A DNA stretch of 58,102 nucleotides, filler included, from Dugesia japonica (taxonomy: Eukaryota): assembly GCA_001938525.1 (NCBI GenBank). It is 5 parts of 5 records of this genome, joined end to end, with 100 filler letters (N's around TTAATTAATTAA, not from the genome) between each part and the next. Parts side by side here need not be neighbours in the genome. Positions count along the whole stretch, not along the records: positions 35,133 to 49,435 come from MQRL01577807.1; positions 49,536 to 58,102 come from MQRL01498894.1; 3 more parts are not named here. One strand, given 5' to 3'. The notes under the pieces were generated by a model. The model was not told where the DNA came from. It did not search any database and was given only the letters and a program-made list of their open reading frames with translations. The first letter of the stretch is position 1, and the number at the start of each line of letters is the position of its first letter. Positions 5,989-58,102 of the stretch are shown piece by piece. Position numbers and translations under genes: made by a program.

Positions 5989-6169
5989 TTACTCTCCGGA
6001 TTCACCATTTATATCGACTTCCCAGGGGAGGGGATATAATTCCCTAAAACACCTCAGGTCTAATTCATCCGGTGAGAGTATAAGATTGATGACCGATCAA
6101 TTGTCTGAGCCTGTTCTGCTCTCTTTCTCGACAGATCAAGTGCAACGTATCCGTCAGATTTCCAGACAT
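5989..6169 (-). pseudogene. Element ORF1 (copy A), frameshifted
   Basis: MSGNLTDTLHLICREREQNRLRQLIGH / LILSPDELDLRCFRELYPLPWEVD, homologous to 40522-40719. Preceded by ttaattcag and followed by AATAAA. Confidence 0.75.
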
Positions 6170-23700: not shown

Positions 23701-24579
23701 TTATAATGTTCAATAAAATGTAAACTATTGATATATTTTTCATTTACAAATCTAAATTTTCATAAATGTTAAGACTACTAAGCAGTGATAATTGTTTAAA
23801 AAAAGTAACATAATATCAAAAATTTGTTAAAAATTTTCATTATTATTTATTATTTCATTATTATTTATTTTCATTGGTAAAAAAAATTCAAATTTTTTTT
23901 AAAGGTAAAAACGAATGCTCTAATGACACATGCGTGATTAATTATGACTTCATGAAATAATGACAGAGGTATCATGCAAGCAACTAAGTCAAATGATACA
24001 AAATTCAGTTGAAAAACAAAAAGAAAAAGAAGTCAACTGACAGACTCTTATTCCATTGCTAGTTGGAAAAATTGACAGCAGCACTTAATTGAAGAATTAT
24101 AAATCCATGCATTTGGAGTCTAATTAATTTCTGAATCATTTTATAAACAAATTATCTGAAAGATTTTGTAAATTCGAAGATATTACCAAAAATCAAGAAT
24201 TATTAATTCTAACCAAAATTTTATAAATTTGATCATGATAAATAAAATAAATTTTTCCAGGAAAAATATTCCCACATAATTAAACTGAGAGAAAAAAAAC
24301 TAACATTTAAAACAACCATTCTATCGATTCTGTGGATTAGTTTTAATTATTTTTTAAAGATTAAAAAATAAATTATAATCCTACACACAATTTTCCCTAA
24401 AGAAAATACTACTGATATTCATTAGTAGATAATATTAATATATAATTATACTAGGTTTTAATTTAATTCCGTATTTATGGCTGGTTACGGGCCAGTAATT
24501 AAACAAAACCCAATCATGACATAATACATTACAATATATTAGTTTCTTCTGTATTAAAGAATATTTATTTCAACTAAAT

Positions 24580-31442: not shown

Positions 31443-33490
31443 TAGACATTCCAACTATTCAAGGTTTTCAACTATTCGAATAACGAATAGAAAAATTTTA
31501 AAAATATTCGATTATTTGAATATTCGAATAATTTACTAAAACTTTAAAAAACATTATCAAAAATAAATATTATAGTAATAAAATTATTAAAAAACAGTTA
31601 AATATTTTTTTTTACTTTTACTATAGAAGTATCTGCTAATGCGAACGTCAAAACTGACTTTACTGATTTGTATCAGTTAGTGATTAATCAGTGATCTGAA
31701 GGATAGTTGTACCGAAAACGGGAACTTTTAATAAAAGGTAAAAAAGTAAATGGTAAATAAAAGGAAGATCACACAAGACTATTAGTTATTTACATGTTTT
31801 ATTTATTACTTTTAAACAGATATTTTAAAAATAGAAGGGAATTGAAAGTCTCTAAATTTAACTTTGATCTCCTTTTAAATTTTATTGCATCTGCTGTTGA
31901 AAACACTCTTTCAGATGCTGTTGAGGTAGGTCGTATAGTAATCAATGCGTTATATGAGATATCCAGCGTTGCCGACCGTTTTTTGAATAAATCAAATTAG
32001 CGAAATTCTTTTTTCAGTTCATTATATTTATTATTTGTTTCAATATTAACATTACATTTTTCTGTAATGGAACTTATTGCATTTTGCAATTCTTTTCGTA
32101 ATCCAGCTGGTGATCATAATTCTATTACATCATCGTTGAAGATGATGTGGAATTATCATTATTAATTTCTTCAATTAATATTCCTGGATATATTTGTTTC
32201 AAATGTTTTCCAGCAAATGAAATTGCTGCATTTTTTGAAGAATATTGAAAATAATCGTTGGAACTTTGTACATTTCCACCATGTAAATAAATTATAAGTG
32301 CAATTAAAACTGAATCTCTTTTTTCATTCATCCTTCTTTTAATAGCACATAGCAACTTCTCTGCGATATTAGTTTGGAAAGGTTGCAACTTTTCAAAGAA
32401 AAATTTGTAAACTCTCTCAACTTTTATGAGATCTGCATTATGTTTGCTCAATTCACTAACGGCATTTTCAATTGGCTACAGAACATCAACAAGGTTTTGT
32501 AGAACGAAAATATCATTTTCTGAAATTTATTCTAAATTTAATTTCACTAAGGATTAATTGACACATTCTGATAAAATTAAAAATCGTCGAATCATTACAA
32601 TCAAAGAATTTCATCTTGTTTTGATGTCCAATTTAAAATTCAGTTTTTTCCTCATTTTTTGAACTATATTTTGTTGCACAAAAGAGTGCTTTAACGATGA
32701 GTTTTTAAATATTCTTATAACATCTCTTAACCAATTTGACCAAAATCAATACTCAATATCATAGCATCTTTATTTTCTTCAACAAACTCTAAATTGTTAT
32801 CCTAATACTGATCTTCTGTGAAATCTTCTTCTACATCATATTCAATTTCATCATCAAAAAACATTTTGATATCGTCCAAGTCCAATGCTTCACTAGGAGT
32901 AGAATTTATTGGTACATAATAACAGTCCATTACGGCCAAATGGAGTGCATGATTATTGCAAAGCTGATTTAAAACATCTAATATTTTCCCATATATTTTC
33001 ATTACAGCTGCTGATTCATTAGTTGATGCAATAACACCACTTTTTAAAGAAATGCCAAAGTTTGCTAGCTTAGCTTCAATTAAATGTTTAATAGTTTCTG
33101 CATTTCCCTGCTTAACTATTTCCGTTAAGCCCAGTACATATCATTCAACTTTTTTTGATTCTATTCCAAGTTCATGAACTGTTACGTTTACATATCGTAA
33201 GATAGTGCAATTTGTCCATTCATCCACAGTACTAGCAAATTTACGATTTGCTTTTATAAATTTTTCAAATTTATTTCGCAGTTCAATACATTTTTCTTTA
33301 TAAACGCTGATGATGCATTTTGAAATAGTTGTTGGACTTTTTGGCATTTTATAACCTTTTAGTTGCATGTATTCAGCTATTGCATAGGATCTGCTTATTA
33401 TTTTTTTCATTATTTTCATAATTTTCTTTATACTTTTCACTTGATACAGATTATGATATAAATCTGTTGATTCGTAACTTCAAATGATTA
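31443..33490 (-). mobile_element. hAT transposon with fragmented transposase
   Basis: STVDEWT (first D), CNNHALHLAV (CxxH), DIKTR*NSL and RPTSTASERVFS (catalytic E) in order across broken ORFs. TATTCGAA subterminal repeats at 31455-31530. Confidence 0.88.
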
Positions 33491-38000: not shown

Positions 38001-38712
38001 TAAATGAAAAAAAAATATAAAGCCTGGTTTAAGGCTTTTCTCTTCAGGATATTGAAATTCATCGTCTTTAGAATCAACATACCAATTTTCATCATCTGAT
38101 TTCTCTTCTAAATCGAAATATTCTCTTTCATCTTCGCTACTAATAGGCCTTGATTCATTTTCCATTAAATTTCAAATTTGTTTGTTCATTATTCTTATAA
38201 GTATATTTAATTCGATTTAGTTTATATTTTCTAAAAGTTAGTATTATTTTTTCATATATTTTTTATGATTTTATAGTCACATTGGATTAAAGTTTAAATG
38301 TTTATTTCTTACTTTATTTTAACCAGTTTTTGTATAATTAAGCCGGACTTTCCAATATTTTGCACAATTTACGCTATTTTACCATATGCTCCATAAATTT
38401 CTATATTTTACCCTGTTTTATCGATTTTATTTTTATTTTATTTTAATTATTTCTTTTATTATTATTGTTGGGGTTCCACCTGAGTTGAGTGAAGAAAATG
38501 TGGCTGGGGAAAATCAGCCCTCAGGGAACCTTTCCAAGAATTTAACCTAACGCCCCTAGGTTAGGTATTCAGTTTATGGTGGTTGACCTCTCGCTTAATG
38601 GGAGGTGCGCGCCCATAGGCCTTTGGATTTGGGCTCACTACTTTCCCTATTACCACGAATTTACTAAAGGTTAGAATGAGTCGAACAATAAAAACTTTAT
38701 TTTACATGAAAA

Positions 38713-38911
38713 TTATATGAGATCAAATGCACCCGGGTCTAACCACTGGGCTGGATCGGTCGTCAAAAAGTTGAACGGCGCCGAATCGTCATTATCGTCC
38801 TATTGGACCCATGCAGAGTTTCCTAGTTGACGGGAGAGATCGGCAATATACTGTTTTAAAAATTCTATTTTGCGTTGCAACAGTAAATTTGTTTCTTGTG
38901 TGAGAGCCTTA
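38713..38911 (-). pseudogene. Element ORF4 (copy B), 3' part; 5' part lies in a gap
   Basis: KALTQETNLLLQRKIEFLKQYIADLSRQLGNSAWVQ*DDNDDSAPFNFLTTDPSQWLDPGAFDLI*, with a premature TAG. Confidence 0.75.
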
Positions 38912-39204
38912 NNNNNNNNNNNNNNNNNNNNNNNNNNNNNNNNNNNNNNNNNNNNNNNNNNNNNNNNNNNNNNNNNNNNNNNNNNNNNNNNNNNNNNNNN
39001 NNNNNNNNNNNNNNNNNNNNNNNNNNNNNNNNNNNNNNNNNNNNNNNNNNNNNNNNNNNNNNNNNNNNNNNNNNNNNNNNNNNNNNNNNNNNNNNNNNNN
39101 NNNNNNNNNNTCGGCGACAGATAGGTCAATTAACTAAGCAAAAGTGATAGAATTAAAAAAAAAACATTTTAATATCAAAACATTTATTTAGGCAATGGCA
39201 GATA

Positions 39205-39651
39205 TTAAGTTCTCGAAGCCTGGGTACCCTTGTCAACTATCAATGGTTCGAGGGGCATTGCAGTTTTCAATTTGTGAATATCCTGAACCAGTTTATTCTC
39301 TCGGTCTTGGTAGGACCGGATAATCTCAGTGAACGACTCTAATTGAGCCTTCCAGATTCTCTCTTGCTGGTGGGATGCTTCAGCCTTGGCTTTAAAAGCC
39401 AAACATTTCTTTTTATAACGACCTATTTTGGCCTCAGCAGATGCTGTACTGGCCTCCCATCGCCGTTTTGCTAGTTTATATAGGTCCCACGTAATTTCGG
39501 CATCATCAATGGACTCTCGCATTTTCTTGGTTGGTGCAGTAGCGCGATTCAATGAAGAGTGCACTAGAAGAAAACGAACACAATACAAAGCCTTGGTGAG
39601 TAACACCGAATACTTACATTTATTGTTACCCGGTGGACAACTAACTATCAT
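39205..39651 (-). CDS. Element ORF3 (copy B), open; possible 54-bp intron 39617-39564
   Basis: Uninterrupted HSSLNR...KRRWEA...IIRSYQDRENKL...VDKGTQASRT. Consensus GTAAGT donor and ttcttctag acceptor in phase 1. Confidence 0.75.
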   Translation of the reverse strand: MIVSCPPGNNKCKYSVLLTKALYCVRFLLVHSSLNRATAPTKKMRESIDDAEITWDLYKLAKRRWEASTASAEAKIGRYKKKCLAFKAKAEASHQQERIWKAQLESFTEIIRSYQDRENKLVQDIHKLKTAMPLEPLIVDKGTQASRT

Positions 39652-39805
39652 TAATCTTAGTTTTAATATATGACAACTTCGGAATAAAAAGATTTAGTGA
39701 TAAGNNNNNNNNNNNNNNNNNNNNNNNNNNNNNNNNNNNNNNNNNNNNNNNNNNGGAATAATTAGTAATTTTATTTTAACACACAACAAAATTAATAGGA
39801 ACACA

Positions 39806-40153
39806 CTAATGGGTAAGAGTCGAATCTTTCACGGGTGCCATATTCTCTGAATCCTTGCTACCCGAGGGTTCTCTTACACCACATAATAAATTTTTAATAA
39901 AAGCTTGCACCGATGGGGGTGGGGCTACAAGTTGATAATGGAATGTCGTGACAAGGATTCGGTCCGGCCCCGTCCAGCTCTGATTATTTTGTCGTTCGCC
40001 AAAATCCTGGATTCTGGTGACGATGGCATCTACCGGTGGTAAGTTTGATCGGTCAGACAAAACACCTGCGTCGTGGTTATACGGATTCCTATGTCGCGGG
40101 AAAATTATGCAACGAGTCCTGCGGTCGATTACCCTCTCCCATATTTATTCCAT
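39806..40153 (-). pseudogene. Element ORF2 (copy B), stop at codon 3
   Basis: ME*IWERVIDRRTRCIIF... otherwise one open 116-codon frame. Confidence 0.8.
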
Positions 40154-40521
40154 TTCTGACTGAAAAATTAAAATTACCATCAACATAATACGATATTCGT
40201 AACATCAATAAATATAAAACAAAAGTAGTTAAATAATAAAAATAAGGGTAATCAACACTGAATTTTATTTTATGGTTCATAGACAGGTTCAATATCCAGG
40301 TCAATCTCCCAAGAGAAGGGATATAGTTCCTTAAAACACCTTAAATCCATTTCATCCCGGGAGAGAACAAGATGAGGGAATAGGAGGTGACCAATCAATT
40401 GCTTACGACGGGCCTGTTCTCTTTCTTGACGANNNNNNNNNNNNNNNNNNNNNNNNNNNNNNNNNNNNNNNNNNNNNNNNNNAAATAATAAAAATAAGGG
40501 TAATCAACACTGAATTTTATT

Positions 40522-40719
40522 TTATGGTTCATAGACAGGTTCAATATCCAGGTCAATCTCCCAAGAGAAGGGATATAGTTCCTTAAAACACCTTAAATCC
40601 ATTTCATCCGGGGAGAGAACAAGATGAGGGAATAGGAGGTGACCAATCAATTGCTTACGACGGGCCTGTTCTCTTTCTTGACCAATTAGGTTCAACGTCT
40701 CCCTCAGGATTGTAGCCAT
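40522..40719 (-). CDS. Element ORF1 (copy B), 65 aa, open
   Basis: Homologous to copies A and C. ttaattcag acceptor 4 nt before the ATG and AATAAA right after the stop. Confidence 0.7.
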   Translation of the reverse strand: MATILRETLNLIGQEREQARRKQLIGHLLFPHLVLSPDEMDLRCFKELYPFSWEIDLDIEPVYEP

Positions 40720-43700
40720 GTGCCTGAATTAAGAAATCAAAAATCATCCCAATGACAATAAGTTATTGTGGGATAATTCGGTGGTTCCTGAAGGTTAGTT
40801 TAGTCGGCTGGTTTGGCTAAGTCTATCGACGATCCTACGAGCTTAGTGCCTCATCAATCCCGCTTTGCGGAAAGTTTTCGGCCTACCGATGAACGTTTAA
40901 TTAATAGTCATACTATTAAATATTACCAACAAAACGCTGACAATCTATGTATTAGTAAGGGTTTTTAATGCGAGTACTAATGTCACCAGAGCTACCGTCA
41001 ATCGGGTTAAGATGAGTAATTTTAATTGGGATGATAGTGATACGTTGATAATAATATGAATTACGTCAAATGTAATATTAAAGATTATAAAATTGTTACT
41101 CAGATTGCTAAGGAATAAATATTGCGACAGGAATAAATATTAGTGCTGGTAATGAGATGAATCGTTGCAATAATGTTAACAATGTTCTTATTACTAAAAT
41201 TACAAGGGAATTATAATAACCCAATTACAATAGCCATTTAATTACCGGCGAGATTATTTTATTATTAATTTGATGTCTAGGCTCTACCAAATAGACCAGA
41301 TGCCATATTGTGGTGAATAAAACACTGCATAAGGTGTCACTAATAATGTTATTAACAAAGGAGAAAGTCAGGGCTAATGAAATATTCTGTTGAATTAATT
41401 CTGGGTAACATGCCCTTAATGTCAACTCTTACAAAAGTGGAGTCTGACTTGTTGATGATTATCCAACACGATAAGGGATGAATCAGAAATAATATTCTTA
41501 TTTTGCAGTAATATTCCACACTAGTGGTGACAATCTTAGTAGATTCATGGACATCAATGAATTCGTATCTTCCTATTGCTAAATGGTGTGTTGGATAGCA
41601 AATAACAATTTATACGCAGAGGGTTGGTATATAGATTATGGAAGAGTTAGTGATTATTACACACCTGCTTCTGAATCATGGATATTTTCCTATCGGACGC
41701 GTTTCGATTCTGATATTAATCATGAGTGGAGTGTAATTTGCTGCTGTTTTGTTAGAAGGGCTAACCACAACTCATATGCGGAGGAATTCAGGTNNNNNNN
41801 NNNNNNNNNNNNNNNNNNNNTTTTTGAAATTAATGATCAAAATAAATTAGATGAACGTTAGGTTATGCAGCAGGTAAAATTAAATTTACTGTTATTTGGC
41901 TTTAAAAAGTATATATAAATTTTTTCTCATTTGATCTTATGAACATATATAGCATAATAACTTATCGAGTAAAAAAATAAGTTTATAATTTCCACCTGTG
42001 GTATTTATTCACCAGCAGCATTTAATGCCTTTCGCATAAATTGAAAGTAAAACCAATTTTCATGTATAATAAGATATATNNNNNNNNNNNNNNNNNNNNN
42101 NNNNNNNNNNNNNNNNNNNNNNNNNNNNNNNNNNNNNNNNNNNNNNNNNNNNNNNNNNNNNNNNNNNNNNNNNNNNNNNNNNNNNNNNNNNNNNNNNNNN
42201 NNNNNNNNNNNNNNNNNNNNNNTTTTCTTTGGGGAACAATCAATTCAAATTTATAAATTAAAGATGTTACTTTATTAGTTTTTTTTCTAACTATTGGCGA
42301 GAATCCTTCGCAATCGTATCAGAATTATTTTAATACTCGAGTAATGCGATTGACACAAATGGATAAATAAAAATTGAAAATTGTTGTTTTTCGTTTCAAA
42401 TCAAGGGGGTTTAAATATCATTTTACGAGACACCCCAACTTGTTTGGCATTGGTCTGCTATTTTTAGTTTGAATCTTCCGTACTTGATTGATTTTGATGA
42501 TAATTTTCTGTAATTTTTTTAGAGTTTGAGAACTCTAATTGGCAGTTATTTTTAAAACCTCATATGATCGATTGTGCTTTGTCTTGTTTTTATTTTCTGA
42601 ATNNNNNNNNNNNNNNNNNNNNNNNNNNNNNNNNNNNNNNNNNNNNNNNNNNNNNNNNNNNNNNNNNNNNNNNNNNNNNNNNNNNNNNNNNNNNNNNNNN
42701 TCACTCTTCTTGAATTTTCTTGCGCTGAATTCCTGTGATTTTCTGGAGCAAAGTTATTCTCATAAAATGAATTTTGGCCTAATTTTAATTTATTTTAACC
42801 TTTAATTAATTCATATTTTCTTTATAATTAATTGTTTTGGTTAATAATTTTCTTGCTTCTTTAAATAATAATTTAATAATTTTCTTTAANNNNNNNNNNN
42901 NNNNNNNATTATCCAGGTTCATTGTTATAGGCTTTTCTTATGTTGCTCCCTATTATCATTAATTTCCGACCCGGTCTGATTTTAGTACTTGTTTTTAAGG
43001 TTAGTATTTTTTCCCTCATACAGTATTATTCTTCTCCTTCTTATGGTACTTGCTGGTTTAAGACCCTCCTGGTCTAGTTTTTTCGTTGACTGGGTGTTTC
43101 ACCCCAACATTATTTATTTTTTATTATTATTTATTTTATTATTTTATTAGTCGAGTATTTATTCGAAAAATTATTTTCGTCTCTTTCAATAAATATTTAA
43201 AATTATTTCAAATTATCTAATGCTTAATAAAAATGTTCAATTATTATAATTAAAGTTTGAAATGAATTTTTCATTATTTTCATTAAGGTTAAAGATTGAC
43301 GATTTTTAATGATGTTATTCTTACGTAGCATTAACTTCTCTATCTAATAGTTACTTTGATGCTTAAATTTGAGTTAAGCTTCTATTTTCATTAATACTCG
43401 ACTCTTATTTAAAAAACATCATTTAACTATTTATTTGAAAGATTTTTCTAAAATTAATGTTTTTACATAAATTCAAGTTGTATATACTTTACTGATAATT
43501 ATTTGAAAATTATTAAATACCCCATACTTAATCTATTTATCTATTATGAGTTATTTCCAACAATTGTTTAGAAATTATTTTAATGAATCAATGCTTAATA
43601 AAAGTTTTCTATTATAAATTAAACATTAATTACAAAATACATGCGAAATCTAATTTTATTTAAAAATATTTCAAAGTTTCATCAATAATCAATAAACCTT

Positions 43701-46700
43701 TAATATTATAATTTTAATTTAACCATAAAAATATATATATAAAATGTAATTTATTTTCTAAATTACCTTTAAAATTTTATTCAAAACATAATTCAATTTA
43801 CTAATAAAAGCAAAGTTTTAATCAAATTAGCTATTGAAAATTAATCAATTCACCATACTTAATTTATTCAATCAAATATATGGATTATTTTCAATAAATG
43901 ATTATAAATTATTTCAATGAATCAATCTTAATAAAAAATTCATATTATAAATAAAACTTCAATTAAATTTTAACGATAAAAATAGAACACTAATTAAAAT
44001 AATTGAACTAAAATAATCTAGAAAACTAAAACCATGTTGTATTGTTGTCTGAAGATTGGTGAGTAGATAAATTTTATCCAAATTTATCTAAAAAGCTACC
44101 CAAAATTGACCTTACCCAATAAATTATCATATTTTTCTGTTCCTCGGGGACTCCAAAATTAAGCACTTGTTTTTTCAATATGACTACTTATCTATACAGT
44201 TGGTGATTTTTAAACCGTGTTATCCGTACTCACCGTAAAACATTCTATCGAATAGTATTAATTTCGATAAATTTTGAGGAATTCTTATACTTTCAAAAAA
44301 TGTTACCAAGTCCGGGAGGACGGCTGTACATATTTGTTAGGAAGCATTTTTACAGAGACGATATTTAAACTTTGTACAGTTACTTTTTCCTCCTGAATAA
44401 AATAATATCAAATTTGAAATCATACGAGTTATGTACGCAGAGAAAATTGAGTTCAAAAATTCAAAATTTGAGATTTTTTCATGACAAAACCCCATTTATT
44501 TCATCGAGTATTAACTTTAGCAATTTTAGGTTAACATATTTGGAATCAGCGAAAAAGTCTCTATAGAATAGACACTATTGGGGTGAAACACCCGTTAAAA
44601 AGGGAAAAAAGGTAGAAAAGCCGAACCAACCGAAAGGAACGGCAAGACCATTATCAATCGTGAAACATAGAAGGCAATGCATGAAATACAACAAAAAAGA
44701 ATGAAATAAAATCGAAGAGGAATACAGAGAACCAGGTGAATAAAATTAGCATAAATCAATATTGGGAATTAAGGAGAATTATTAAATAGTAATAAAAACC
44801 AAGAAAATCGGTATGAAAATAATTAATTAACAGAAGAAAAATAATGATTAATTTTAAATAAAAAAAGAAGCAAAATTAACAAAAACATTCGTTTTATCCG
44901 AATAACTTCGCTCAAGGAAATCAAAAAGAATCGGGGTAAAAAAATACAGAAAGAAAATATCGAGATGCAGTTGAAATTACTAAGAAGAAAAACTTACCAC
45001 CTTCCAGAGGGTTGCTGCAGGGTCCTAAAAATCGAACCAATTAGAAATCTAAAAATAAAAATAAAACAAAGACACAATTATCATATGTCAGTCCAAAAAT
45101 AGACGCCAATGGCAACTCTAAAATTCTGAAAAAATTTAGAAAACTGGCACTGGAACCAATAAAACCAGAAAACGTTGATCTAAAAATAACTAACGAATCT
45201 GGAGGAAGTTGGGGTGTGCAGAAAATCATATAAAAATGACCCCTGAATTTAGCAAGAAACAGACTAAAAAATAATAAAACGAACTACAACAAACTTTGAT
45301 AAATTGTGAATTCCAAAGCACATATTTGAAATCGGAAAATTATCAAGAAAAAGAATAATATTATACTAGTTAACTTAGAACGAGGAAAATTGCACTCCAA
45401 CGTACAGGGAAATCAAAACAAAGAATTTACTTCGAATCTAATTGAAAGGTCGTCACTCAAAAGCGGAAGGAAAAACCTTAATCTTGAATCAAACCCGTTG
45501 CAGAAATTCGTCAATTGATATTAAATAAAATATTTATTTTATTATGTAAAGAATTGCATGGTCAGAAAATTTTGATGTTATGTATTTCTAATAAAATATG
45601 TATATTAAAATTTCAATTCATTATTTAGTCAATTAAACGTATTAATAGATAGAAAATAGACTACTGTGACTTTGAATGATAGTAGACTCGTAAGTGACAT
45701 TTTACGGTAAATTCCTTGTAACGTTCATTAAATTAAAGAAAGTATTAACACATAAACATCTAGAGACCCGGTTAATTGAGATCTAAACAAATTTATGCTT
45801 ACCTGTGGGGTAAAAGTATAAACCAAAAATCGAATACGTCATAGTTTTCCTTTGCTAAGATTGTGAGTGAAAAAAGATAAAATTCCAACAATTTATTTGA
45901 CAAAATAATAAACTATTTCAGTTATATCAGAATCATAATAAATCCACAGATTTTAATGATAAGCGTCCACTAATGTGTCGATCACTGACTCTGATCGGTT
46001 GAATTCTACTGATATGGAATGGCCACATTTTTTGTCATAGAATAGAAATAACTATCGCATTTCATAATTATGTTTAAAGACAGTGAATCATCACCTAAAA
46101 TTATAACTGCCAATAGGTTGTGCATGTGCACCAACCCAAAAGTCATACCATTAGAATGTGTACTCATAATGATGGCTGGATGTGGTTGTTTAACTCTGTC
46201 CTCGCAACCCTACAAGAGACTAATTCTATGCACACCTACATGTTGCAGATCCATCTAATCGGTTGTCAAGGGGATAAAATCACCATGCAACGGTGAAGTG
46301 TGGAGGTTTAAAATAGAAAAAATTTTATAATTATTATAAATCTCATAATTTATGATTTTCTTATTATTAGATTCATTATTTTATTACTATTAATAATTAC
46401 CTTATTGTAGGTCTAATTTCACGACAATCATCATATACCGTCAGTGTTGGTATTAGTGGTTTAACCAGAGTAAAATCTTCCCTTTATTAAAATTGAATAA
46501 AATTCAAGATTATGATTACTATTAGCCGCTGGGGTGCCATTCCTGATGTCAGAATTGTTATTCTTATGTTTTGAGCACCATGGAGAATATTTTTCTTCCG
46601 TTATAGTACTAACTCCCATATGATTCGGGTTCGGTTGTTTGATGTTGCGGTGCAACTTATTATGGTTAATCGTCGATAATGTTTGACGAACTGTCATTTC

Positions 46701-46860
46701 CTTGCCCGAATCATTCTAATCCAAATTAATATCATTCCCTTAAATATTATCTTTTAATGAGGTACACCACATGGTCATATTAAGGGTCTGTGGTTACTTT
46801 TCGTTTTTAGGGAACTCAGTCATAAGTCGAGAATGGTGATTAATGACTTCATTCTTTAGC

Positions 46861-47043
46861 ATGCCCGCAGAATTATATCAAACCATACGGTGGATTAGAA
46901 GGCAACGACAAGTTAGTTGGACGAAACAATTGATAGCGCACCTATTGACCCGAGGAAAAATAGAGCATCCAGACGAGACAGATCTTTGTTGTCTAGTTGA
47001 AATGTTCCCCTTGAACGATGGAGTAGATCTAGATGAAGAGTAA
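46861..47043 (+). CDS. Element ORF1 (copy C), 60 aa
   Basis: KQLIAHLL...PDETDLCCLVEMFP aligns with KQLIGHLL...PDEMDLRCFKELYP. tttag lies 1 nt before the ATG. Confidence 0.65.
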   Translation: MPAELYQTIRWIRRQRQVSWTKQLIAHLLTRGKIEHPDETDLCCLVEMFPLNDGVDLDEE

Positions 47044-47179
47044 CCTTAGTTGGTTGATTCCCATACGATAAAATAAATTGTATAAAAGCTTACTTTGTTT
47101 CTAAATTGTTAACTTAAATTGTTTTTCATTTTAAAATTGTTCTATTTGAATTTTGGTACTTATTCCGTTTTTCTTGGCT

Positions 47180-47528
47180 ATGGAATCCATCTGGGGACGA
47201 GTAGTCGATCGGCGGACTCGCCGTATAGTTTTCCGTCGACATCACAATCCCCACGATCGAGACGCAGGAATTCTGTCCGACAGATCAAATTTACCTCCCG
47301 TCGAAGCTGCTGTAGCCCGTATCCAGAGCTTCGAGGAGCGCTTGAGTTTTTCTTCAGTGGAGTGGGCCGGAGCGCAATCATGCTACCCCGTTCCGGTATC
47401 AACCCCCAGCACCCCCGCTAGTAGTGCAGGCTTTTATTGAAAATATGCTATGGGGAGTTAGGGAACCCTCCGGGTCGGAGGATGCCGAAAATTCAGCTCC
47501 TGCCGAAAACATTACTCCTGACCCTTAA
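47180..47528 (+). pseudogene. Element ORF2 (copy C), one frameshift
   Basis: 349 nt versus 348 in B. MESIWGRVVDRRTRRIVFRR... / VQAFIENMLWGVREPSGSED. Confidence 0.8.
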
Positions 47529-47732
47529 TGTACAACATGTTGTGAACTGATTCGTTTAATAAATGAATGTTTTAATTAGTCTAAACAAGTTTTCTTCAGT
47601 TATTAGTTTTAATGAACAAGTCACTTTAAAATCACTCTATTAGATTTTTATACCTTGAATAAGGTTGTATAATTGTCAGTAATTCAGATATTGATGTTCT
47701 GAGAGAAAAGCTATTACCACCTTTTATTTTAG

Positions 47733-48111
47733 TGCATTCCTCCTTAAATCGTCCCACAGCTCCTACCAAAAAAATTCGAGACACTAGTGAGGACAATGAA
47801 CTCACTTGGGACTTATATCGTTTAGTAAAACGACGCTGAGAAGCCGACGTGGCAGCTGCCAGTAGTAAAGTCTTCCGTTATAAAAAGAAGTGTGTTCTCT
47901 ACAAAAAGGAAGCAGAGGCCTCCCACCTACAAGAGCGTACCTGGAAAAGCAGGTGGAATCTTTTTCGGAAATTATCCGGTCCAGCCATGACCGAGAAAAT
48001 AATCTGGTTAGCGATATCCTGCGACTACGAGAGAGCATTCCGCTCGAACCTTTAATGATTGACAAAGCACCCAGACCCGCGGAGCTAGCTACGTTCATGC
48101 TTTATAAATAA
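47733..48111 (+). pseudogene. Element ORF3 (copy C), with a stop and frameshifts
   Basis: HSSLNRPTAPTKKIR...KRR*EA.../ESFSEIIRSSHDRENNL...PLEPLMIDK. Confidence 0.8.
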
Positions 48112-48187
48112 AGTTATTATTAAATTTTTCTAGTGTAATTCGTTAATATGTCAATAATCATTCAAAATTTTGTAAATTAATATAATA

Positions 48188-48583
48188 TTGCTTATTTTAG
48201 TGCCTCACACCAATTTCCCAAATAGCATCCGCCGATGTCACTGTATATTGCGCCGCCTGTTGACAGAGCGACATCTAAAACGGAAGACAGATAAATCTCT
48301 ACTAAGACACCTAAACCAACGGGATAGGCTAATNAAAAAACTCGACCATATAATAAAGAAACAGGGTGATCTAGCCATCCAAACTAAGGCCCTGGAAACT
48401 GAAACCAAACAGCTTTTACAAAGGAAAATAGAGTTCCTAAAGCAGTATATAGCAGACCTTTCCCGCCAGATTGGTAATCCTGCCTGGATTCATTGGGACG
48501 ACAATGATGACGTCGCCGCCTTTAATATTACCGTCACCGATCCAACTCAATGGTTAGACCCAAGGGCTCTGGATTTAATATAA
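48188..48583 (+). CDS. Element ORF4 (copy C), open frame; start uncertain (TTG, or spliced at 48200/48201)
   Basis: Colinear with 4446-4844. AATAAA downstream. Confidence 0.7.
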   Translation: MLILVPHTNFPNSIRRCHCILRRLLTERHLKRKTDKSLLRHLNQRDRLXKKLDHIIKKQGDLAIQTKALETETKQLLQRKIEFLKQYIADLSRQIGNPAWIHWDDNDDVAAFNITVTDPTQWLDPRALDLI

Positions 48584-51500
48584 ATGTTTTAGTAAAATAA
48601 AATGTGTATAATTGAGATCGTGTTCCTTTTCATGAATTATTAATAATAGGGAAAATAATGAACCCGAATACAAAGGTTTGTGGGTGTGCACCTCCCATTA
48701 ATAGACAGGTCAACCACCATAAACTGAAAATCTGCCCTGGGGCGGTAGATCTAAATTCTTGAAAGGGTTTCCCTGAGGGCTGTTTTTCCCCAGCCATCGT
48801 TTTCTTCATTCAACTCAGGTAGAACCCCAACAGACACTTTATTAAAATATTTAAGAAGAAAAATATTTTCGAAACATTTTTATCTGTGTAAAATGATCGC
48901 CGTAAAATTTTAAGCAGTTTGGTATTAAAATCTTTGAAATCTGAGATATAGAACATATTTTTTCAAAACTTTAGATGGTTTACTCAGACTACCAACAAGA
49001 CTTCATTTAAAAAATTTTAAATTCTCATACTATTTAAACAACATGATCGGTTTGTCTAGATTCTTTTAAAATATTCCCATTTAAAATTTTTAAAAACTGT
49101 AAAATTTAAAAAAATTCAACTTTTATCATGAATTTCCTTAAAATTCAACCCAAACTGACCAATCCTATAGAAATTATCATTCGAATTCTCCTAATACTTA
49201 CCCTTGTGAGGAAATAATTAACCAAATCGTCCAAAACTGACCAAAACAGACTAATGTGAGAAATATTCGATCAATATTACCTAAACTGGGTAAAAAAAAT
49301 TGACCAAATTGTCCAAAACTTAACCAAATTAACCATTCACTGAGGAAATAATTGACCAAATTAACCTAAAAATTACTTTTGTGAGAAAATAATTAACCAT
49401 TCCCGAGAAAAACGTTGATCGAATTTACCTAAAACNNNNNNNNNNNNNNNNNNNNNNNNNNNNNNNNNNNNNNNNNNNNTTAATTAATTAANNNNNNNNN
49501 NNNNNNNNNNNNNNNNNNNNNNNNNNNNNNNNNNNAATTTTATAGATATCTGAAAATCATAGCATGGATTCTTTAAAAAGCATGAGTTTTTTGAATTTCT
49601 ATATTTTTCTAATAGCTAATTTCTTAATTATTTTTATTAAAATAATTCAACAATTTATTAATTCTTTATTTTATTTAATTGATTACATTTTAGATTCAAG
49701 AATGTCCGAGGGAATGGAAAATCTATCATTTCAAGAGAAAGTTCAATTATTTGAATTTGCAATTAGTCGAAGTTCTCATTAAATATTCGATTGTTCAATT
49801 ATTCAATTATTTTTTATTAAGTAGTTTTCATTGGTGATTAAATTGTGAAATTCTTTTTGACATGGTGTTATGTAATATCATTAGAAACTGTAATGAAGTT
49901 GTTCACTACTAATAGCCACCACCACTACCACCACCATATCAGCATTTAATAATTAATAATTTATTATCATCATCGTCATCATAATTAGTTGAAAATTTTA
50001 TTATTAATTTGTAATAATCGATTGTGGGTGGCCTTATTTAGCATTCCATTGATTTTAGATTTTTTATGTACATTTGTCCCTCTTTTCTATGTTGCGTTTT
50101 AGTGTTTGTAATTCAGTTTTTTAAATTTTTTTATTGTTCACAATTTTTCAAATGAAATTGTTGATCTTTAATTTGGGATCTGTTTTTTCTTATGCAGTGG
50201 ACCGATTTTTTTAATATCATACATTCGTATTGATTTTGTTTTTTTTTATTTTTTTTTCAATTTAATGTGATTAATTGTTAAATTATTTCTGATTACTTTT
50301 TAATAACTAGATTCAATTAAAATTGATTTAGATAGCTTAACTACTCACAAAACAATAAGTTATAAAAAATTTAGCATTTCTCTCTTTGAATGTATGTTTG
50401 ATCTCAATTATTAATTTCAATAAATAGAGCTAAAAATCTAATTCTAAAATGCTTTTATTTTTATGTTGGAAAATTTATTGAATTTTCGACAGTTATTTCT
50501 CAGTTGAAAATTAAAAAAAATCTCAATGTTAGACTCTACAATTTAATTGATCGGAGAAATATATACTTTTTGAGCAATTGACCAGCACTTCACATCATTC
50601 ACTCATGCATTCACCTATTATCAGATACATTATAAATTTATTCCATCAAATGTGTAAAGATCAATATTGGAATATTATATAATTCGCAGTTATGTCACAT
50701 AATTACTGTTAGTTAATACAACATTTTTTCCAATAAAACTTCATTCATTACAAAACTTTGATCATTTGATTTTATTTACTTTCTGGCTGAAATTACATTT
50801 CCTCCATTTTCTTAAATTCACTATTCAAATAAACGTTTTGTAATATGTTAATGTTTATTTTTAAAAAATTAAATTAATATATGTTGGGCTAGAATGCCTG
50901 AATAACGGGAAAATACGGGGTTAAAACGTGACTGATTGAGTAAATCAAACGAGCAGAAATTAAGAAATTTGATATACTGGACCAGAAAATTTGATTATTA
51001 TAAGTATTATTATCATTATTATTATATTATTATTATGGGTATAATTATTATGAATCTACTATAAAAGATCCGAAAATGAAAATTGGGCGCAAAGAACTCT
51101 GAGTTGGATTATCAAGATAATTTGTTAGAGAAATACGACAAGAAGGTTTAGATAAATAGTAAAAATCATCTTCTCTATGATATTATATTAAAGGGGCCTC
51201 TATGACCCTAATTATTTATTATATTAACGGTAATTTCCGTTTAATATTATTATAATCTCTTAATTAATGAAATAATCTGGTCCAGTCATTGTCTGGTTAG
51301 GGTTAATGAAGTCTAAAATTAACAACAAAATCAGTGAATCACCCTAAACCAGACAAAGAAAATTGATAGCAACCACACCAGTCACCCGAGGTCACACGAG
51401 GTGACTGATGACAACAAAATCACCAACAGTGATAAGGAGCCATACAGTCAAAGGAGCAGAATTAGGAATGGCGGTTATTGATTGGCCGGCTAATGAATAC

Positions 51501-51759
51501 CCGCAATCTGTAGTTGGAAAGAGTGAATAAAACTGGAATACTCAGCAAAAATAGACACTCTTTCACAATCAATTTTGTATTATTTATTAACCTATTGCAA
51601 CTTGTAAGAATTTCGTCTATTTGCAAATTAATAACATTTACCAGTGGAGAAAATCTAAGTATTAAAAAAGTCATTTTTAATCATATTGCTAATATTATTA
51701 TAATGTATGCCTTACATGCTCGAGTGTTCTAAGAAGTCGGATGGTCGTGCTACCATCAA

Positions 51760-52110
51760 TGTTGAAACAAATTATATGAAAATTCCAATGAATTAAAATA
51801 GTGAGACGAAATAATATGATCGCAACAAGTTGCTGCAAACTTCCAGAAATAATTGCAAACAGTTTAATGCACTCATTATCATCTATGTTGAAATAAATTA
51901 TATGAAAAATTCCAATGAATTAAAATCATGAGACGAAATAATATGCTCGGAACAAGTTGCTGTAAACTTTGAGAAATAATTGCAAACAGCTTAATGCACT
52001 CATCAATATCAAGATTGTAAAAAATTAGATGAAAATTTCTAATGAATTACAATCGTGAGAAGAGTAAATGCTATCGGAAAAATTGTTATAAAATTTGAGG
52101 AATAATTCTA
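51760..52110. repeat. ~126-bp tandem repeat x3 inside element D
   Basis: Units start at 51760, 51886 and ~52013 (TTCCAATGAATTAAAAT...GAGACGAAATAATATG...); the third is more diverged. Confidence 0.8.
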
Positions 52111-52912
52111 AAATATTCAGAGGAACAAAAAGCGAGAGCGGAATGAAGGTTGTCGGACACAGTATTACTAAATTGAGACAAATGTTATGAGACAAATTAA
52201 TAGAATTGGATTGCGATAATGCAACATTAAAGTGAAATATCTAGAAAAAAGAAAAGATATAAAATTATAATGAGTTGAAAGAGGTGACACGGAATGATAG
52301 AGGTCAAACGGCTGATTAAATGAGACGGACCTGCTTGAGGGAACAAATGAATTTAGATCAAATTTTTATGAGTAGGATGGGAGCTCGATGATTATGATTT
52401 AACTTAGATAATAAAAAAATATGTTGTGCAACTTAATGTCATAACTTATTTTTAGTTTTTTTTTCTTTTTTGGTATTTTTAATTGGAAAATTTGGATAAA
52501 CTTTATGTTAATTTTTTCGCAATGTATCAATTTTAATTTTACAAGGAATTAGAATAGTATCATAAATATGCACTTCTTTTTCTTTAGTTTTGACATTTAA
52601 ACATGCAAGCAATTGAATTATAAATTGAGTAATAAATAAGTCTTAAATTAAAAGATTCAAAGCATCTTTACTCCATGATGAACTAAACATATCTTACAGA
52701 AAATATTAAGGAATTTAGAAGCAGAGCTTCACACTAGTGGTGACTAGAAAAGATGATTGCTTTAGTAGGCACCTTCTCTGGTCCGTACTATAGAAGCAAG
52801 GGGACCAGAAATGATAGGCTGCATTCCGAAAAAACGGAAACTGGTTATAATCTTTATTTAATTTATATTTATTGATTGAGTCGGAAAAATACGTAATTTT
52901 ATATTAATAGAA

Positions 52913-53317
52913 ATGACAGCATATTTCAAACCCCACATACTACTAGTGCTCTCAAATGACGGCGAAGAAGGAACCTTCTGGATCCCATGGCGAAAAACAG
53001 TAGAGCTATTGGACGACCAGAAAGCAATTTATGAGAAGGAGAAACAGGAGATGAGAGCAGGTCAGCAGGAGTTAATGAAACGCCACCTTGAGCTGCGGCG
53101 GCAATTGAAAGCAGTCAGTGACGACACAGAGAAGCGCAGAGACGGTTGGATTTACAAACAGTGGCCCGAGAGCTCTCAACGGCAACACACCATATGATTG
53201 ATCACCAATTTTTGATGAAACAAATGGAGAAAGTGATTTTCAGGCAACTGATTGATGACACTGGGGTCATGACCGAAGCATGGGACCCAGTGTGTATTAA
53301 AATCGAATCTCTGTAGG
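52913..53317 (+). pseudogene. Element D coiled-coil ORF, probably frameshifted
   Basis: tag|AA ATG context as in family-1 ORF2. 94-aa ORF plus an out-of-frame continuation to TAG, then AATAAA. Confidence 0.55.
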
Positions 53318-53617
53318 AAATAAAATAAATGTATTGATGTTGTGCAAGTGTCGACTTTGTTTGTTTGTTTGTTTGTTTAATTACGTGATATGTATGTCAC
53401 GATGTTGATTTATTTTTATCATAACGACCTGCAGAGGCGGCGAATAATTTAATTACGATAGTAATTTAGTTTTAGTGAATGAAAGTTTTGTTTATGTTAT
53501 TCCTAAAAGTGGCGGAGTGGAAAATTTCCATTCTCATAATTAAATAATGATAATAACATTACTGATAATATGCTATAATTACTTTTACATGCATTCATCA
53601 TAATAAAATTATTTTAG

Positions 53618-53927
53618 TGAACAAATCTAGCGAGGAAATGATCTAGAAAAATGATGAGATGGCTGCACAGAAAAAAGGAAGGACGAGAGGCGCGAGTTGC
53701 GCAATGAAATAATGAATCTAAAGGGGCAACTGAATAAGTCGTCCAAATTGAAAGAGAAGGAGTTGGCTCTCCAGCAGACCAATTGTCTCATGGCCGATAT
53801 CATCAAGATATACGCGGACCATGAAGCTACAATTTTCCACACTCTGCGAACCTTGTGGTTAAATTATCGATCGTCGGAAGAGTCCACTGATACAGCGGAC
53901 AATACAGTGGACCTGGATGCACTATAA
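53618..53927 (+). pseudogene. Element D ORF3 homolog
   Basis: ttttag|TG start. ERRELRNEI...KEKELALQQTNCLMADIIKIYADHEATIFHTLRTLWLNYR, then AATAAA. Confidence 0.7.
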
Positions 53928-56900
53928 CCAGTGGAGAAACTGTAAATATATAAATAAACGTTAATTGATGTTCATTGAGTTGTTCTGAATTACGACTGTG
54001 TCTGGTAAAGTAAAATCATAAGTGTTATTACAAGCCGAATTTCAACTGAGCATTTGAGAAAAATTGTTGTTGGGGTTCAAAAATTTAGTGAGTAAGACGC
54101 GATACCACAAAGTCGCGTTGAACCCAGGAAAGATAGGGGCATGATACAGAGGTACTATAAACACTTGGGGTTTTTAGGTGTGCCTCTAGACATTATAGTG
54201 AATTACTAAATTTGAAAGTGAGATCAGAGAGTTATAGAGAATAATTTAAAGATCGAAAGCCTAAAAACCCAACATATATATTTTTTACAAATTTAAGATA
54301 TTAAATATAAACTCTATAATAAATTTAAAATTTATTCAAAAAATATTTTCATGTTAATTTAACAAATATTTTAATTTAATATTAAATATTATAATTTAAC
54401 AAATATAATTTAAGATTTGATAAGTTTTAGAATGTAACATTTATATTTAAATTTATCATTAACCTTTACAATTTCGAAGGTAATTAATTTTATTAGTTAT
54501 TTAGGATTTAAATCCACTCTTTAATTAATACAACTTTAAAATCTATTCTAATTTAATTTTAGAATTACATTCGAAAATTTACCAGTAAATTTTAAAAATC
54601 ATTTTAAAACTTATTTTTAAAAGGTTTAGAAATTCCCAACGTAAAAATATCTTACAGTAGCAATAAGTACCAGATAACGAAATCTATCTTTGATACTTTT
54701 ATCAATAATAATTTGACTGTAAATCAGAAAAATCAATATTCGACTTGCTTCTCTTTTGTAATTATCAACAGACTATAAAATGTAGTTTGGAGGCATTCAA
54801 AACTCTCTTCCAAGAAATGAAGTCATTCAGTTTGTTGGGCTGGAACACATCAAGAAATACAAAATGAGACATAAAAAAATGTTGAAAATAAATGAGTAAA
54901 ATAAGGACAACAGTGGGCAAATTGGATGTTCTGGACCAGAAAATCTATTATCATGAATAAAATTATCATTATTATTATATAATTATTATTATAATCATTA
55001 TGAAATTATTTATGAAAATATCAAAAAAAATCGAAAATTGGACGTCAAAGACCCAAATGTCGCCGCATATGAATGAAAATTATATCAGATAAAAGAGAAT
55101 CACGAACTAAATAATAAAAATAATATACAATAGTATAATAAAATGTTAAAGGGCTCTCTGCGACCCGTTTTATTTATTATAAATAACGCTAATTAGCGTT
55201 TAATATTATTGAAAAGTTAATTAATTTTGGTCCAGTCATCTTCTTGCCTTGTCTGAATCTGATGATAACAGTTGCAAATAAACAAGGAAACTGATTATTT
55301 ACCGGGAGTCAGACAAGGACTTTCCATGGAAACCAACAGATTCATCAGAGGTCACATGAAGTGACAGTCAAAATTTATCAAAATCCGAAAAGTCCGAATT
55401 TGTGTGCAAAAACACTGAGATACGCACACCAATCTGGAAGGCCGGAGAGAGAAAATTCAAAAGGATTGGTTGGCTAATCGAGGGCCAGATTTTCCGTTCA
55501 TCATCTTTAATAAAACCCGGCTAATCGAAGAAAAAGCACCACTTTTTTAAAACAATTTTGTTTTAAAAAAAATTTTTTAAATCGTTTTATCACAAATTTA
55601 CTGTTTGTTATAACTATTAACGGGTCAGGAGGAACCCAAAAATCATTTTATTTACAACTGTTAAAGGATCAGGAGGAACACAAATTCATTTTATTACAAC
55701 TTTTAACCGACCAGGANGAAAACAAATCAAGTAAATTTTACTTAATTTAACTAACATTTTGTGACTGTTTTTCCGAGTGTCCATATCGAGATAGTGTTTT
55801 ATTTACTGGTATGATGCTATGGATGATCGTGTTCCCGAACGAGAAATATTATGATCACCGCGAGAAATCTTATGAATGGAACGAGAAATATTTTGGCAGA
55901 AAAGCGCAATATTATGATCAGAACAAGAGAGCTTCTGAACCGAATGAGAAATATTATGGATAGAAAGAGAAACAGATAAATTACGTCCAGGAAAGCGACC
56001 AGAAAATTCATCCGAAAAGTAATCGAGAAAAAGTATAATATAGCAAAAAATGACGTGCCGACAGTGCTCTAAAACAGTAATCTGGAGAGTGAATAGAAAA
56101 GCACTCAGAAGCTATCTATCATTGAGAGAAAAATTGCGTACTGAAAAGTAATATTTACAGTAATCCAAATCGAGAGAGAAAATTGAGTGCAGAGAAATAA
56201 ATTTACTGAGGAAGGTTTGGCATGAGCGGCGGTTATGATAGGTCGCAAATAGCTCGGTCGGAATCAGGCAGAGAAAGCTCGGTTTATGTTTTGTTGTAGA
56301 ATTGTGTTACTGTCTGGTATTTTATCTGTATACACATTTATTCGATGCTACTAATTAATGATTTTAATAATACTTAGTTTAAATTGATTTCTTTGGATTT
56401 TAACGTTTTATTTTCTAAATTTTAATGTTTAGTCGAAATAGAATATTCACGATTGATAAATAATACCTAGCGATTGAGCGTTATATTTTTCTTACTCGGC
56501 GAAAATCGCGTCGACACTGGACGATTAAGTAGATTCAACTCAGAAATTCTATAATGAATCAACTGTCTAACAAATGTTTTTGGAGGGATTATAATCCACA
56601 ATCTCCAATCATATGAATGATAAAATTCGAATTAATTTGTTGGCTANNNNNNNNNNNNNNNNNNNNNNNNNNNNNNNNNNNNNNNNNNNNNNNNNNNNNN
56701 NNNNNNNNNNNNNNNNNNNNNNNNNNNNNNNNNNNNNNNNNNNNNNNNNNNNNNNNNNNNNNNNNNNNNNNNNNNNNNNNNNNNNNNNNNNNNNNNNNNN
56801 NNNNNNNNNAGTAGGGCGAAGAGCTCGTCTATGTGTAATATTTTGTCCAAAATGTTTAACAAATTTATCTTCGCTTTATGTTTTGCTCAATTTATAAATT

Positions 56901-57046
56901 TTTATTAGACGTATCAAGATCAGGAATCAAATGTGCAATCCAAGGCAGCCGCAACGTCGTATTTGGATCAGGACGGAAATTACTACTTGGAATAGAAGGA
57001 AGTACAAGCCATGCTAAATCAGGTGAGAAAAGAGTAGGCACTGATA

Positions 57047-57343
57047 ATGCAGAGTTTAAAGGCGGCTTTGAAGGCGGCGCAGTTGCAAATAATTATCAAA
57101 GATGCAAACTGGCACTTGGCAGAATACCAGCTAAAATGTCTGCGAGAAGGAGAAGAACGAGAGGAGAACTCGAGTGCGGATCATGCACCGGAGGTGGAAT
57201 TATGCATAACCAACGTACGGACCATAGTCGGAGGTGATGAAGAAAAGGAGGAAGCCGAGGAAATTCGAATTATTCAGGAGCTGATGCAAATGCGGGATAG
57301 AATAGCCATCTTGCCGTTATGTTCTGATGGCCTTGATGTTTGA
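57047..57343 (+). CDS. Element E acidic/coiled-coil ORF, likely the remnant of a longer frame
   Basis: 98-aa ORF with raised GC at the same position as D 52913-53317, but no obvious similarity to it. Confidence 0.4.
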   Translation: MQSLKAALKAAQLQIIIKDANWHLAEYQLKCLREGEEREENSSADHAPEVELCITNVRTIVGGDEEKEEAEEIRIIQELMQMRDRIAILPLCSDGLDV

Positions 57344-57618
57344 TTTTAATAATGTCTTGAATAGAAAGTTTTTTAAACTGGAGTTGGCTTATTATTTTGG
57401 TGTGTTCAAATGTGGAAGTAATAATATCGACGCCGTAATATGTACGTCACTGCAAATTTTATATGGTATTAAAATTGTCCGCAGAGGCAATATATAATGG
57501 AGTAAACAAATTTTTTTTGTAACGGCCGAATGTTGGCGAGTTTAGGATCTTTTCGAACTAAATTTATTTATACAATTTTTATTGCGCCATCATTATTTAA
57601 AATGTGTTTACATTTCAG

Positions 57619-57937
57619 TGAATAAAAGCAACGAGGAATCCATCCCGAGAAAAGAGGTGTTTATGATGAAGAATAAATGGAAAGAGGAGCGCAGGGAACT
57701 CCGAAACGAAGTGTTAAGATTGAACGGCAGGCGTCAAAACAAACGGCTAAATATGATCAGCATAAGGAGAAGGAGCTATTCCTATAAATGTCAAACCGAC
57801 TCATGGCGGATGTTATTAAAACTTACGCGGATCGTGAGAATTCAATGTTCGCGACCCTCCGAACAATGTGGATAAACTACCGAACTGCACCAGCAGAGGC
57901 TGAGGAGAAGGGCGTATCGGTTAATTTAGATTACTAA
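57619..57937 (+). pseudogene. Element E ORF3 homolog (frameshift plus stop)
   Basis: tttcag|TG start. KNKWKEERRELRNEVLRL/RQASKQTAKYDQHKEKELFL*MSNRLMADVIKTYADRENSMFATLRTMWINYR, then AATAAA. Confidence 0.75.
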
Positions 57938-58102
57938 TTTAATGTACAAATAAATTTTAGAAAAATTAGTTGAATTATTTTGATATTTTTGTTGTGGTCA
58001 TAATCTTCCGAGCATTTGGTGAATAATAATCAAAGTTTAACGTCGACATGGTGTAACTGAAGCAAATTGTATCATGAATTACGGAGAATGTGAGAGTTAT
58101 GG

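Follow-up and report, generated by a model that had tools for sequence, protein, structure and literature searches.

Four-gene units with integrase-type ends in planarian DNA, probable solo long terminal repeats of a Ty3/gypsy-type retrotransposon

Long terminal repeats (LTRs) are treated as non-coding promoter and terminator repeats, with single-gene exceptions such as sag of mouse mammary tumour virus (MMTV), and they can be long, as in Woot of Tribolium with its 3.6-kb LTR. Giant-LTR families include Ogre (PMC6431247) and Retrosat2, whose giant LTR carries 10-bp inverted ends and occurs in 429 solo compared with 162 full copies (PMC3485330). In Schmidtea mediterranea, Burro/GYPSM1 likewise has multi-kilobase LTRs, thousands of copies and accessory coding capacity (PMC6431247). 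Here, a stretch of 58,102 nucleotides of Dugesia japonica DNA (assembly GCA_001938525.1; five joined parts, together called the window) was analyzed, in which three diverged ~4-kb units, copies A, B and C, could be identified. The units are integrase-type insertions with four genes kept by purifying selection, and they are probably solo LTRs of a giant-LTR Ty3/gypsy-type retrotransposon with an accessory-gene array. With Ty3/gypsy solo LTRs and the families Retrosat2 and Ogre they share TG...CA ends, short inverted sites, a 4-5-bp target-site duplication (TSD), a multi-kilobase length and many solo copies. In the available descriptions of giant-LTR families, however, extra open reading frames (ORFs) lie in the internal region, whereas here four selected ORFs lie between the end motifs. 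In Burro/GYPSM1 the extras belong to a ~4,900-aa polyprotein as domains or form an upstream ORF, and an LTR-borne array is unmentioned in the available part of that paper (PMC6431247).

The copies are listed below, with the strands of A and B given relative to C, in whose direction the anatomy is described.

4198-8227, minus strand: copy A, 4030 bp, TSD CATT
38466-43109, minus strand: copy B, 4644 bp including 585 N, TSD TTAT
44576-48832, plus strand: copy C, 4257 bp, TSD GACAC, sitting in a high-copy repeat

These three copies, with their ends and separate TSDs, had been put forward in a preliminary description made from the sequence alone, and were confirmed by coordinates, ends and flanks. 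Its size of ~4 kb also held, with lengths of 4.0-4.6 kb, except that the length of B is inflated by the 585 N and by a 200-bp near-identical repeat beside a gap (40231-40430 and 40483-40682), which is probably an assembly artefact. The copies run from TGTTGGGGT to ACCCCAACA, C having one substitution at base 2 (5' end TATTGGGGT). Compared with the LTR consensus TGTTRNR...YNYAACA, A, B and a further element, D (see below), fit at both ends, and C fits apart from that base. The inverted end comprises 9 bp only, and no longer inverted match was found within the outer 400 bp. TSDs of 4, 4 and 5 bp (A-C) and 4 bp (D) lie within the 4-6 bp used as a criterion for Ty3/gypsy; in the window, flanks match by chance with a frequency of 0.008 for a random 4-mer and 0.003 for a 5-mer.

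Contigs of a DNA run bridge the two flanks of C (44554 to 48848 and 44570 to 48849); C therefore lies within a high-copy repeat that is free of the element in its other copies. Among the contigs of three DNA runs, 48 of 1715, 57 of 1461 and 48 of 1628 ceased to match at 48832, and the sequence past this point was mixed and AT-rich with an agreement of 0.48-0.50. Since contigs leave at 48832 into mixed flanks, the 3' end is fixed across many insertions. Summed depth at this position dropped from ~3000 to 0-6 within ~10 bases. At 48752-48795, a ~40-bp core of the terminal block reached a contig depth ~100 times that of its neighbours, up to 4e5, depth not being equal to copy number; this core is common to many more subfamilies or to another repeat. 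The element family is abundant and further subfamilies exist.

From 5' to 3', the units begin with an A-rich block, continue with a spacer of 1.3-1.6 kb and four ORFs that are richer in GC than the AT-rich gaps between them, and close with a conserved end. The following parts were delimited in C.

44765-45250, plus strand: conserved A-rich 5' block, with CCAAT three times (45037, 45106, 45156) and a TATA-like site at 45229
45295-46845, plus strand: variable spacer, unalignable to A and B, with GC-richer patches and short ORFs on both strands
48596-48832, plus strand: terminal block with AATAAA, a GT-rich stretch and the best-conserved end CCCCAACA

This is the layout of 5' region, spacer, ORF1-4 and 3' end given in the preliminary description, with a conserved 5' region of ~0.7 kb instead of 1 kb. 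Identity among A-C was 64-72% in the 5' block, 46-47% in the spacer, 63-70% in ORF3/4 and 72-83% in the last ~245 bp. The CCAAT/TATA block is a predicted promoter, and 48596-48832 is predicted to be the R/U5 end; an AATAAA with a GT-rich stretch lies ~240 nt from the 3' end in all three copies. RNA folding of the terminal 200 nt was unconvincing (z -0.06 to -2.2). A hammerhead suspected by eye in the 3' block was dropped, its motif order being wrong and Rfam giving 0 matches. A Pfam scan of the spacer ORFs of C gave no family. In the spacer of B, an antisense frame of at least 70 aa with aromatic and cysteine residues lies at 41583-41792 (plus strand) behind a strong acceptor-like site, with no Pfam family; a donor-like site is present near 41876, and at the corresponding position of C the same strand also carries a donor-like site. 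The spacer of A holds a hydrophobic 76-codon frame (6339-6566, minus strand) and that of C a cysteine-rich 68-codon frame (46052-46255, plus strand). These are not shared between copies and are possibly lineage-specific extra genes.

The four ORFs are listed with the ratio of nonsynonymous to synonymous differences (pN/pS).

46861-47043, plus strand: ORF1 of C, open frame of 60 aa with an acceptor-like AG placed 1 nt ahead of its ATG, pN/pS 0.37-0.50
47180-47528, plus strand: ORF2 of C, ~115 codons, frameshift mid-way, acceptor AG of A and B absent, pN/pS 0.28-0.33
47731-48111, plus strand: ORF3 of C, starts AG|TG without ATG, internal stop and frameshifts, pN/pS 0.24-0.34
48199-48583, plus strand: ORF4 of C, 127 aa, open (one N), starts AG|TG, pN/pS 0.18
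4446-6169, minus strand: ORF1-4 of A, with ORF1 (6169-5989, frameshift), ORF2 (5863-5521, frameshifts), ORF3 (5306-4938, internal stop) and ORF4 (4829-4446, open)
38713-40719, minus strand: ORF1-4 of B, with ORF1 (40719-40522, open), ORF2 (40153-39806, early stop), ORF3 (39564-39205, open) and ORF4 (readable only at 38908-38713, 5' half in gap)

Their sizes of about 60-65, 115, 119 and 127 aa agree with the ~60, 115, 120 and 130 aa given before, and their GC content of 43-54% stands against 14-31% in the gaps between them. In all nine whole-ORF pairs pN/pS was 0.18-0.50 (Fisher p 2e-5 to 2e-39), with synonymous sites near saturation. The ORF2 pair A-C, in which both copies are frameshifted, was left out, and two partial ORF4 pairs with B followed the same trend. 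The two shifted sense frames gave 0.82-2.91. All four ORFs are genes under purifying selection. Of the 11 fully readable ORF copies, six are broken (ORF1-3 of A, ORF2 of B, ORF2-3 of C) and five open; selection therefore acted in replicating lineages, and these insertions are decaying.

The starts and ends of the ORFs follow a common pattern that the preliminary description had missed. In five of six ORF1/ORF2 copies a pyrimidine-rich AG lies 1-4 nt before the ATG. ORF3 (3/3) and ORF4 (2/2 readable) exist as ORFs without an ATG of their own and open at AG|TG in the same phase, so that an acceptor precedes 10 of 11 readable ORF starts. TG follows 6% of 210 acceptor-like sites in the window, and AG|TG was found in 7/7 readable cases (ORF3, ORF4 and the last exons of D and E, see below). 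Of 12 stops, 11 have an AATAAA within 50 nt, the background being 15% (31% in AT-rich windows), a count that, the copies being related, represents four positions and not twelve. By these signals, ORF1-4 look like alternative last exons rather than free ORFs. A donor-like A|GTGA is present at -172/-173 in A and B (4371, 38638), the corresponding position of C (48658) being without GT; such a site arises by chance in ~6% of 230-nt stretches.

The predicted products are small proteins. ORF1 consists of a helix followed by a DExDLxCxxE motif and an acidic tail. Its assignment as an LxCxE Rb-binding protein like E1A CR2 was rejected: the motif is LxCxxE, and Adeno_E1A matched with E=0.23 and 11.5 bits, the cut-off being 27.7. 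ORF3 is predicted to form a coiled coil, with weak sub-threshold coiled-coil Pfam matches on the B copy. The structural model of ORF4 (pLDDT 77.7) has two long helices (8-43 and 47-91) and a disordered acidic tail, and gave no match at E<=0.001 in BFVD and PDB; that of ORF2 (B copy, pLDDT 41.7) was unusable. By inspection, the translations of ORF1-4 contain no long hydrophobic stretch and no transmembrane helix with a basic patch, and have no fusogen look; hydrophobic spacer ORFs in A and B are not conserved. ORF3 and ORF4 are not detectably paralogous.

As stated in the preliminary description, no reverse transcriptase, integrase, DDE or recombinase could be found: no such Pfam family was present in the element ORFs scanned (10 and 3 from D and E in one set, 12 in another), B having gaps. 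Pfam gave only sub-threshold matches, with no gag, env or zinc-knuckle family. Homologue searches among proteins of similar length yielded 15 candidates for ORF4 and 76 for ORF2 (alignment search), none of which scored. A single match of ORF3 among 1.84 billion representatives of any length, a protist repeat protein (33%, E=1e-4), was rejected, and in Atlas ORF3 gave unnamed clusters at 0.91 with recognition below threshold. An exact look-up of 10 ORF forms found 0/10, PDB sequences gave at best coiled coils at E=0.003 that are regarded as chance, and viral and metagenome contigs contained no element locus. The term orphan used earlier was weakly tested, since the collection is without close host relatives. 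In a control search, the RWD-domain host exon of the window found only three proteins with 45-48% identity, one of them from a spider. Because close relatives even of this conserved exon are absent from the collection, the blank searches are no proof of absence in flatworms.

Two related elements, which form a second family of the same design, had been overlooked in the preliminary description.

50882-54274, plus strand: element D, TGTTGGG...CCCAACA, TSD TATA, acceptor-led ORFs, last exon AG|TG at 53618
54833-58102, plus strand: element E, related to D and truncated where the window ends, with AG|TG of the last exon at 57619

Both start with TGTTGGGCT, share a 5' block with 71% identity, and have last exons with 47% amino-acid identity over the aligned part. 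The 3' end of D rests on a 4-bp TSD in AT-rich DNA; 207 bp before it, at 54068, D contains an internal TGTTGGGGT, and a donor-like A|GTGAGT lies at 54088. Homology of the D/E last exon to ORF3, an idea raised by eye, was unsupported (BLASTP none; hhalign probability 3.3%, E=0.013). D and E share the design of A-C, not a demonstrated ancestry. Tandem repeats occupy the same place in D and E (51751-52107 and 55800-55980), with a period of ~126 bp in D and shorter units with open tyrosine- or arginine-rich frames in E. In D, the ATG of a second frame at 53122-53313 (plus strand) and the stop of the preceding ORF overlap as ATGA near 53195, an arrangement known from stop-restart translation. Copies A-C make up 22% of the window, and A-E 34%.

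The preliminary description had offered two models, a giant solo LTR with a gene cluster and a non-autonomous cargo element of the Ginger type; the first is favoured and the second disfavoured, with neither proven. The solo LTR is favoured because the ends fit the LTR consensus and because the order of variable middle, AATAAA, GT-rich stretch and conserved end corresponds to U3-R-U5. An integrase-site consensus, AATAAA with a GT-rich stretch, a conserved 3' part and a variable middle have been described for LTRs (PMC3601003). Six gag-env-pol elements of S. mediterranea (1-215 copies) are listed without LTR or primer binding site (PBS), and with the flanks to 3 kb and matches up to 5000 bits used there, very long LTRs would escape (PMC13524379). 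These six are possible partners of the 4-kb units, being compatible with them and no more closely linked.

Several observations weigh against a solo LTR with spliced genes. The length of the TSD varies (4, 4, 5, 4), and no paired copy, gag, pol, PBS or polypurine tract was seen. In the rows listed, with 48-57 flanks in each of three runs, the commonest letters past 48832 are AT-rich and do not open with TGG, although a minority of full-length copies would be masked by such a plurality. The donor at about -175 is strong only in B and D (-172 to -186), weak in A and absent in C, and A, B and C have no conserved donor in common after the CCAAT/TATA block. Of 108 joints, the 15 listed include none within the element that RNA supports, and the three RNA runs, read at 6-25%, covered ORF1-4 to a depth of 0-1.6. 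Among the runs listed as containing the sequence, none was certainly RNA, one guessed to be RNA standing at a share of 0.06. In one RNA run, 78 reads fell on the terminal block, 77 of them less than 95% alike; their reading as specific expression was rejected, since relative to DNA depth they were no more than those of the flanking repeat. Full-length RNA must also bypass four poly(A) signals within the LTR. Finally, one antisense frame has a low pN/pS as well (0.28-0.67), which is expected as a shadow of the sense frame, although the pN/pS test alone leaves antisense coding possible.

It is unlikely that the 4-kb unit is instead the whole of a non-autonomous cargo element which has ends of the integrase type, is mobilised in trans by an integrase like that of Ginger or of LTR elements, and keeps a spliced gene array of its own. 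Such an element would account for the finding that every complete copy (A-D) stands alone with its own TSD and that no PBS plurality follows the 3' end. Ginger1 and Ginger2/TDD likewise have TGTNR ends, TSDs of 4-5 bp and lengths in the range of 2.6-7 kb (PMC2836005, PMC6839031). Their terminal inverted repeats, however, measure 40-270 bp in Ginger1 and 50-180 bp in Ginger2 (PMC2836005), or ~45-300 bp in Ginger2/TDD, compared with 9 bp here, and the TSDs found here are not the CCGG/CCGT of Ginger1. Apart from these 9 bp, the two ends of the units are asymmetric and show no relation to each other, and their promoter-like and poly(A) features are arranged as in an LTR. The DDE integrase gene of Ginger1/2 was not found in the ORFs scanned, with the gaps in B, and a non-autonomous member would also be without one. 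Long purifying selection on cargo without an enzyme would be hard to explain in a cut-and-paste element. A variant, regarded as equally improbable, is a self-contained, enzyme-free cassette of at least two families that spreads as such with borrowed integrase-type ends, one promoter and a bank of spliced genes; it would represent a novel type of mobile element that distributes very many copies of a regulatory programme over a stem-cell-rich genome.

The chances are slightly lower still that the units are solo LTRs of a non-autonomous element with a non-coding interior, resembling large retrotransposon derivatives (LARDs), or of a BEL/Pao element, and not of an autonomous Ty3/gypsy element. LTRs of ~4 kb are known from LARDs, and all LTR features tested are common to these groups. 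The TSD of BEL/Pao is 5-6 bp, whereas the TSDs here are mostly of 4 bp. The short inverted repeats (SIRs) are conserved in BEL/Pao too (PMC3601003); Gypsy is the prominent LTR class in Schmidtea (PMC11410931), which counts for Ty3/gypsy if the host is of that genus. A derivation of ORF1-4 from pieces of gag, env or a Burro-type polyprotein, or from host exons that were captured, is highly improbable: Burro polyproteins hold Smc-like coiled coils and accessory ORFs (PMC6431247), and captured exons could be missed in a collection without close host relatives, but no gag, env or zinc-knuckle family was found, the search with ORF3 among 1.84 billion representatives gave no credible relative, and in all copies the ORFs are set apart by individual stops, AT-rich spacers and acceptors, with the GC contrast to the gaps.

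For the favoured solo LTR, a three-step scheme is proposed. A full-length element, LTR-gag-pol(-env)-LTR, would insert, and recombination between its LTRs would leave a single LTR with its TSD. Collapse of a full-length element to one LTR is standard for LTR elements, and it would explain the lack of an enzyme gene in the units. In the second step, a common leader exon would be joined by splicing to any of the four last exons, which have separate poly(A) sites; four small proteins would thus arise from a single promoter, while transcripts left unspliced would continue further. For ORF3 and ORF4, the leader would supply the initial A of the start codon (A|TG). Under terminal-exon definition, poly(A) use is tied to the upstream acceptor, and if this applies, unspliced RNA would bypass the poly(A) sites. 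The leader might start at the CCAAT/TATA block at ~0.7 kb, an option slightly preferred, which would place the genes in R/U5. Alternatively, the end of the 5' LTR could be spliced to the 3' LTR via the A|GTGAG-type site at about -175, which would place them in U3. In the third and weakest step, the products would be soluble intracellular regulators, ORF3 and ORF4 as coiled-coil adaptors and ORF1 as a short acidic motif protein. By analogy with the accessory proteins of complex retroviruses, they might perhaps act against host silencing or tune the cell cycle, a suggestion that is made tentatively.

Individual features of this scheme are found in other systems. The small accessory ORFs sORF1 and sORF2 of the MDG1 group are likewise under selection and lie upstream of gag, and sORF1 is followed by an alternative poly(A) site at which a short RNA terminates; they differ in being two unspliced ORFs outside the LTR, with sORF2 a membrane fusogen (PMC11952523). 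In errantiviruses of the springer subclade, the env start is split (AU|G) and completed by splicing, as proposed for ORF3/4 (10.1101/2023.08.03.551782), and MMTV sag/naf combines protein coding in U3 with a second promoter (PMC9412291). Both have one gene each, compared with four or more alternative last exons here, and no sequence likeness was found. Closer to planarians, the probe of GLT2, inspected by eye on the reverse strand, contains an AT-rich spacer, a pyrimidine-rich acceptor with TG and an open, helical-looking frame, as in ORF3/4 (PMC8532177). GLT2 is derepressed in neurons upon smedwi-2 knockdown in S. mediterranea, and the ORFs of GLT and GLT2 are undiscussed in the available part of that paper (PMC8532177). 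One qPCR primer each of GLT and GLT2 had no match in the window at 3 mismatches, so that they are not these copies.

The remainder of the window is AT-rich eukaryotic DNA (GC 19-39% per 2-kb bin), in agreement with the A+T of >70% in Schmidtea (PMC11410931), and contains the following features.

10965-11270, plus strand: exon of an RWD-domain (RWDD4-like) host gene, Pfam E=5e-15
24520-25831, plus strand: two overlapping frames (327 and 156 codons) with an Ig-like C2 domain and a membrane-like stretch at their end, resembling a single-exon surface protein gene broken by a frameshift or N
20589-21080 (plus), 32125-33479 (minus), 28764-29066 (minus) and 2970-3371 (plus strand): remnants of a mariner transposase (Pfam E=4.5e-13), of probable hAT-like transposases (by eye) and of a reverse transcriptase (fragment, E=4.7e-5, 0.8 kb beyond the TSD of copy A)
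22556-22690: imperfect palindrome, 135 bp, 81%

No account of a spliced gene array within an LTR was found in the open literature covered, which included neither Repbase nor the supplements of Grohme et al. 2018, and the available part of a recent preprint (bioRxiv 10.64898/2026.01.28.702291) does not mention these elements. The repeat itself may already be catalogued in Repbase or by Grohme et al. (2018). Each part of the proposed expression scheme has a precedent (MDG1, MMTV), whereas the four-gene bank is without precedent in the literature covered. Repeat masking hides ORF1-4 from annotation. If the proposed reading is true, an invertebrate retrotransposon would reach the regulatory complexity of complex retroviruses, and each solo LTR could stay a protein-expression unit. 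ORF1-4 would then be candidates for part of the tissue-specific transposon signal upon smedwi-2 knockdown (PMC8532177), and directly testable candidates for the means by which PIWI silencing is counteracted by gypsy elements in adult stem cells.

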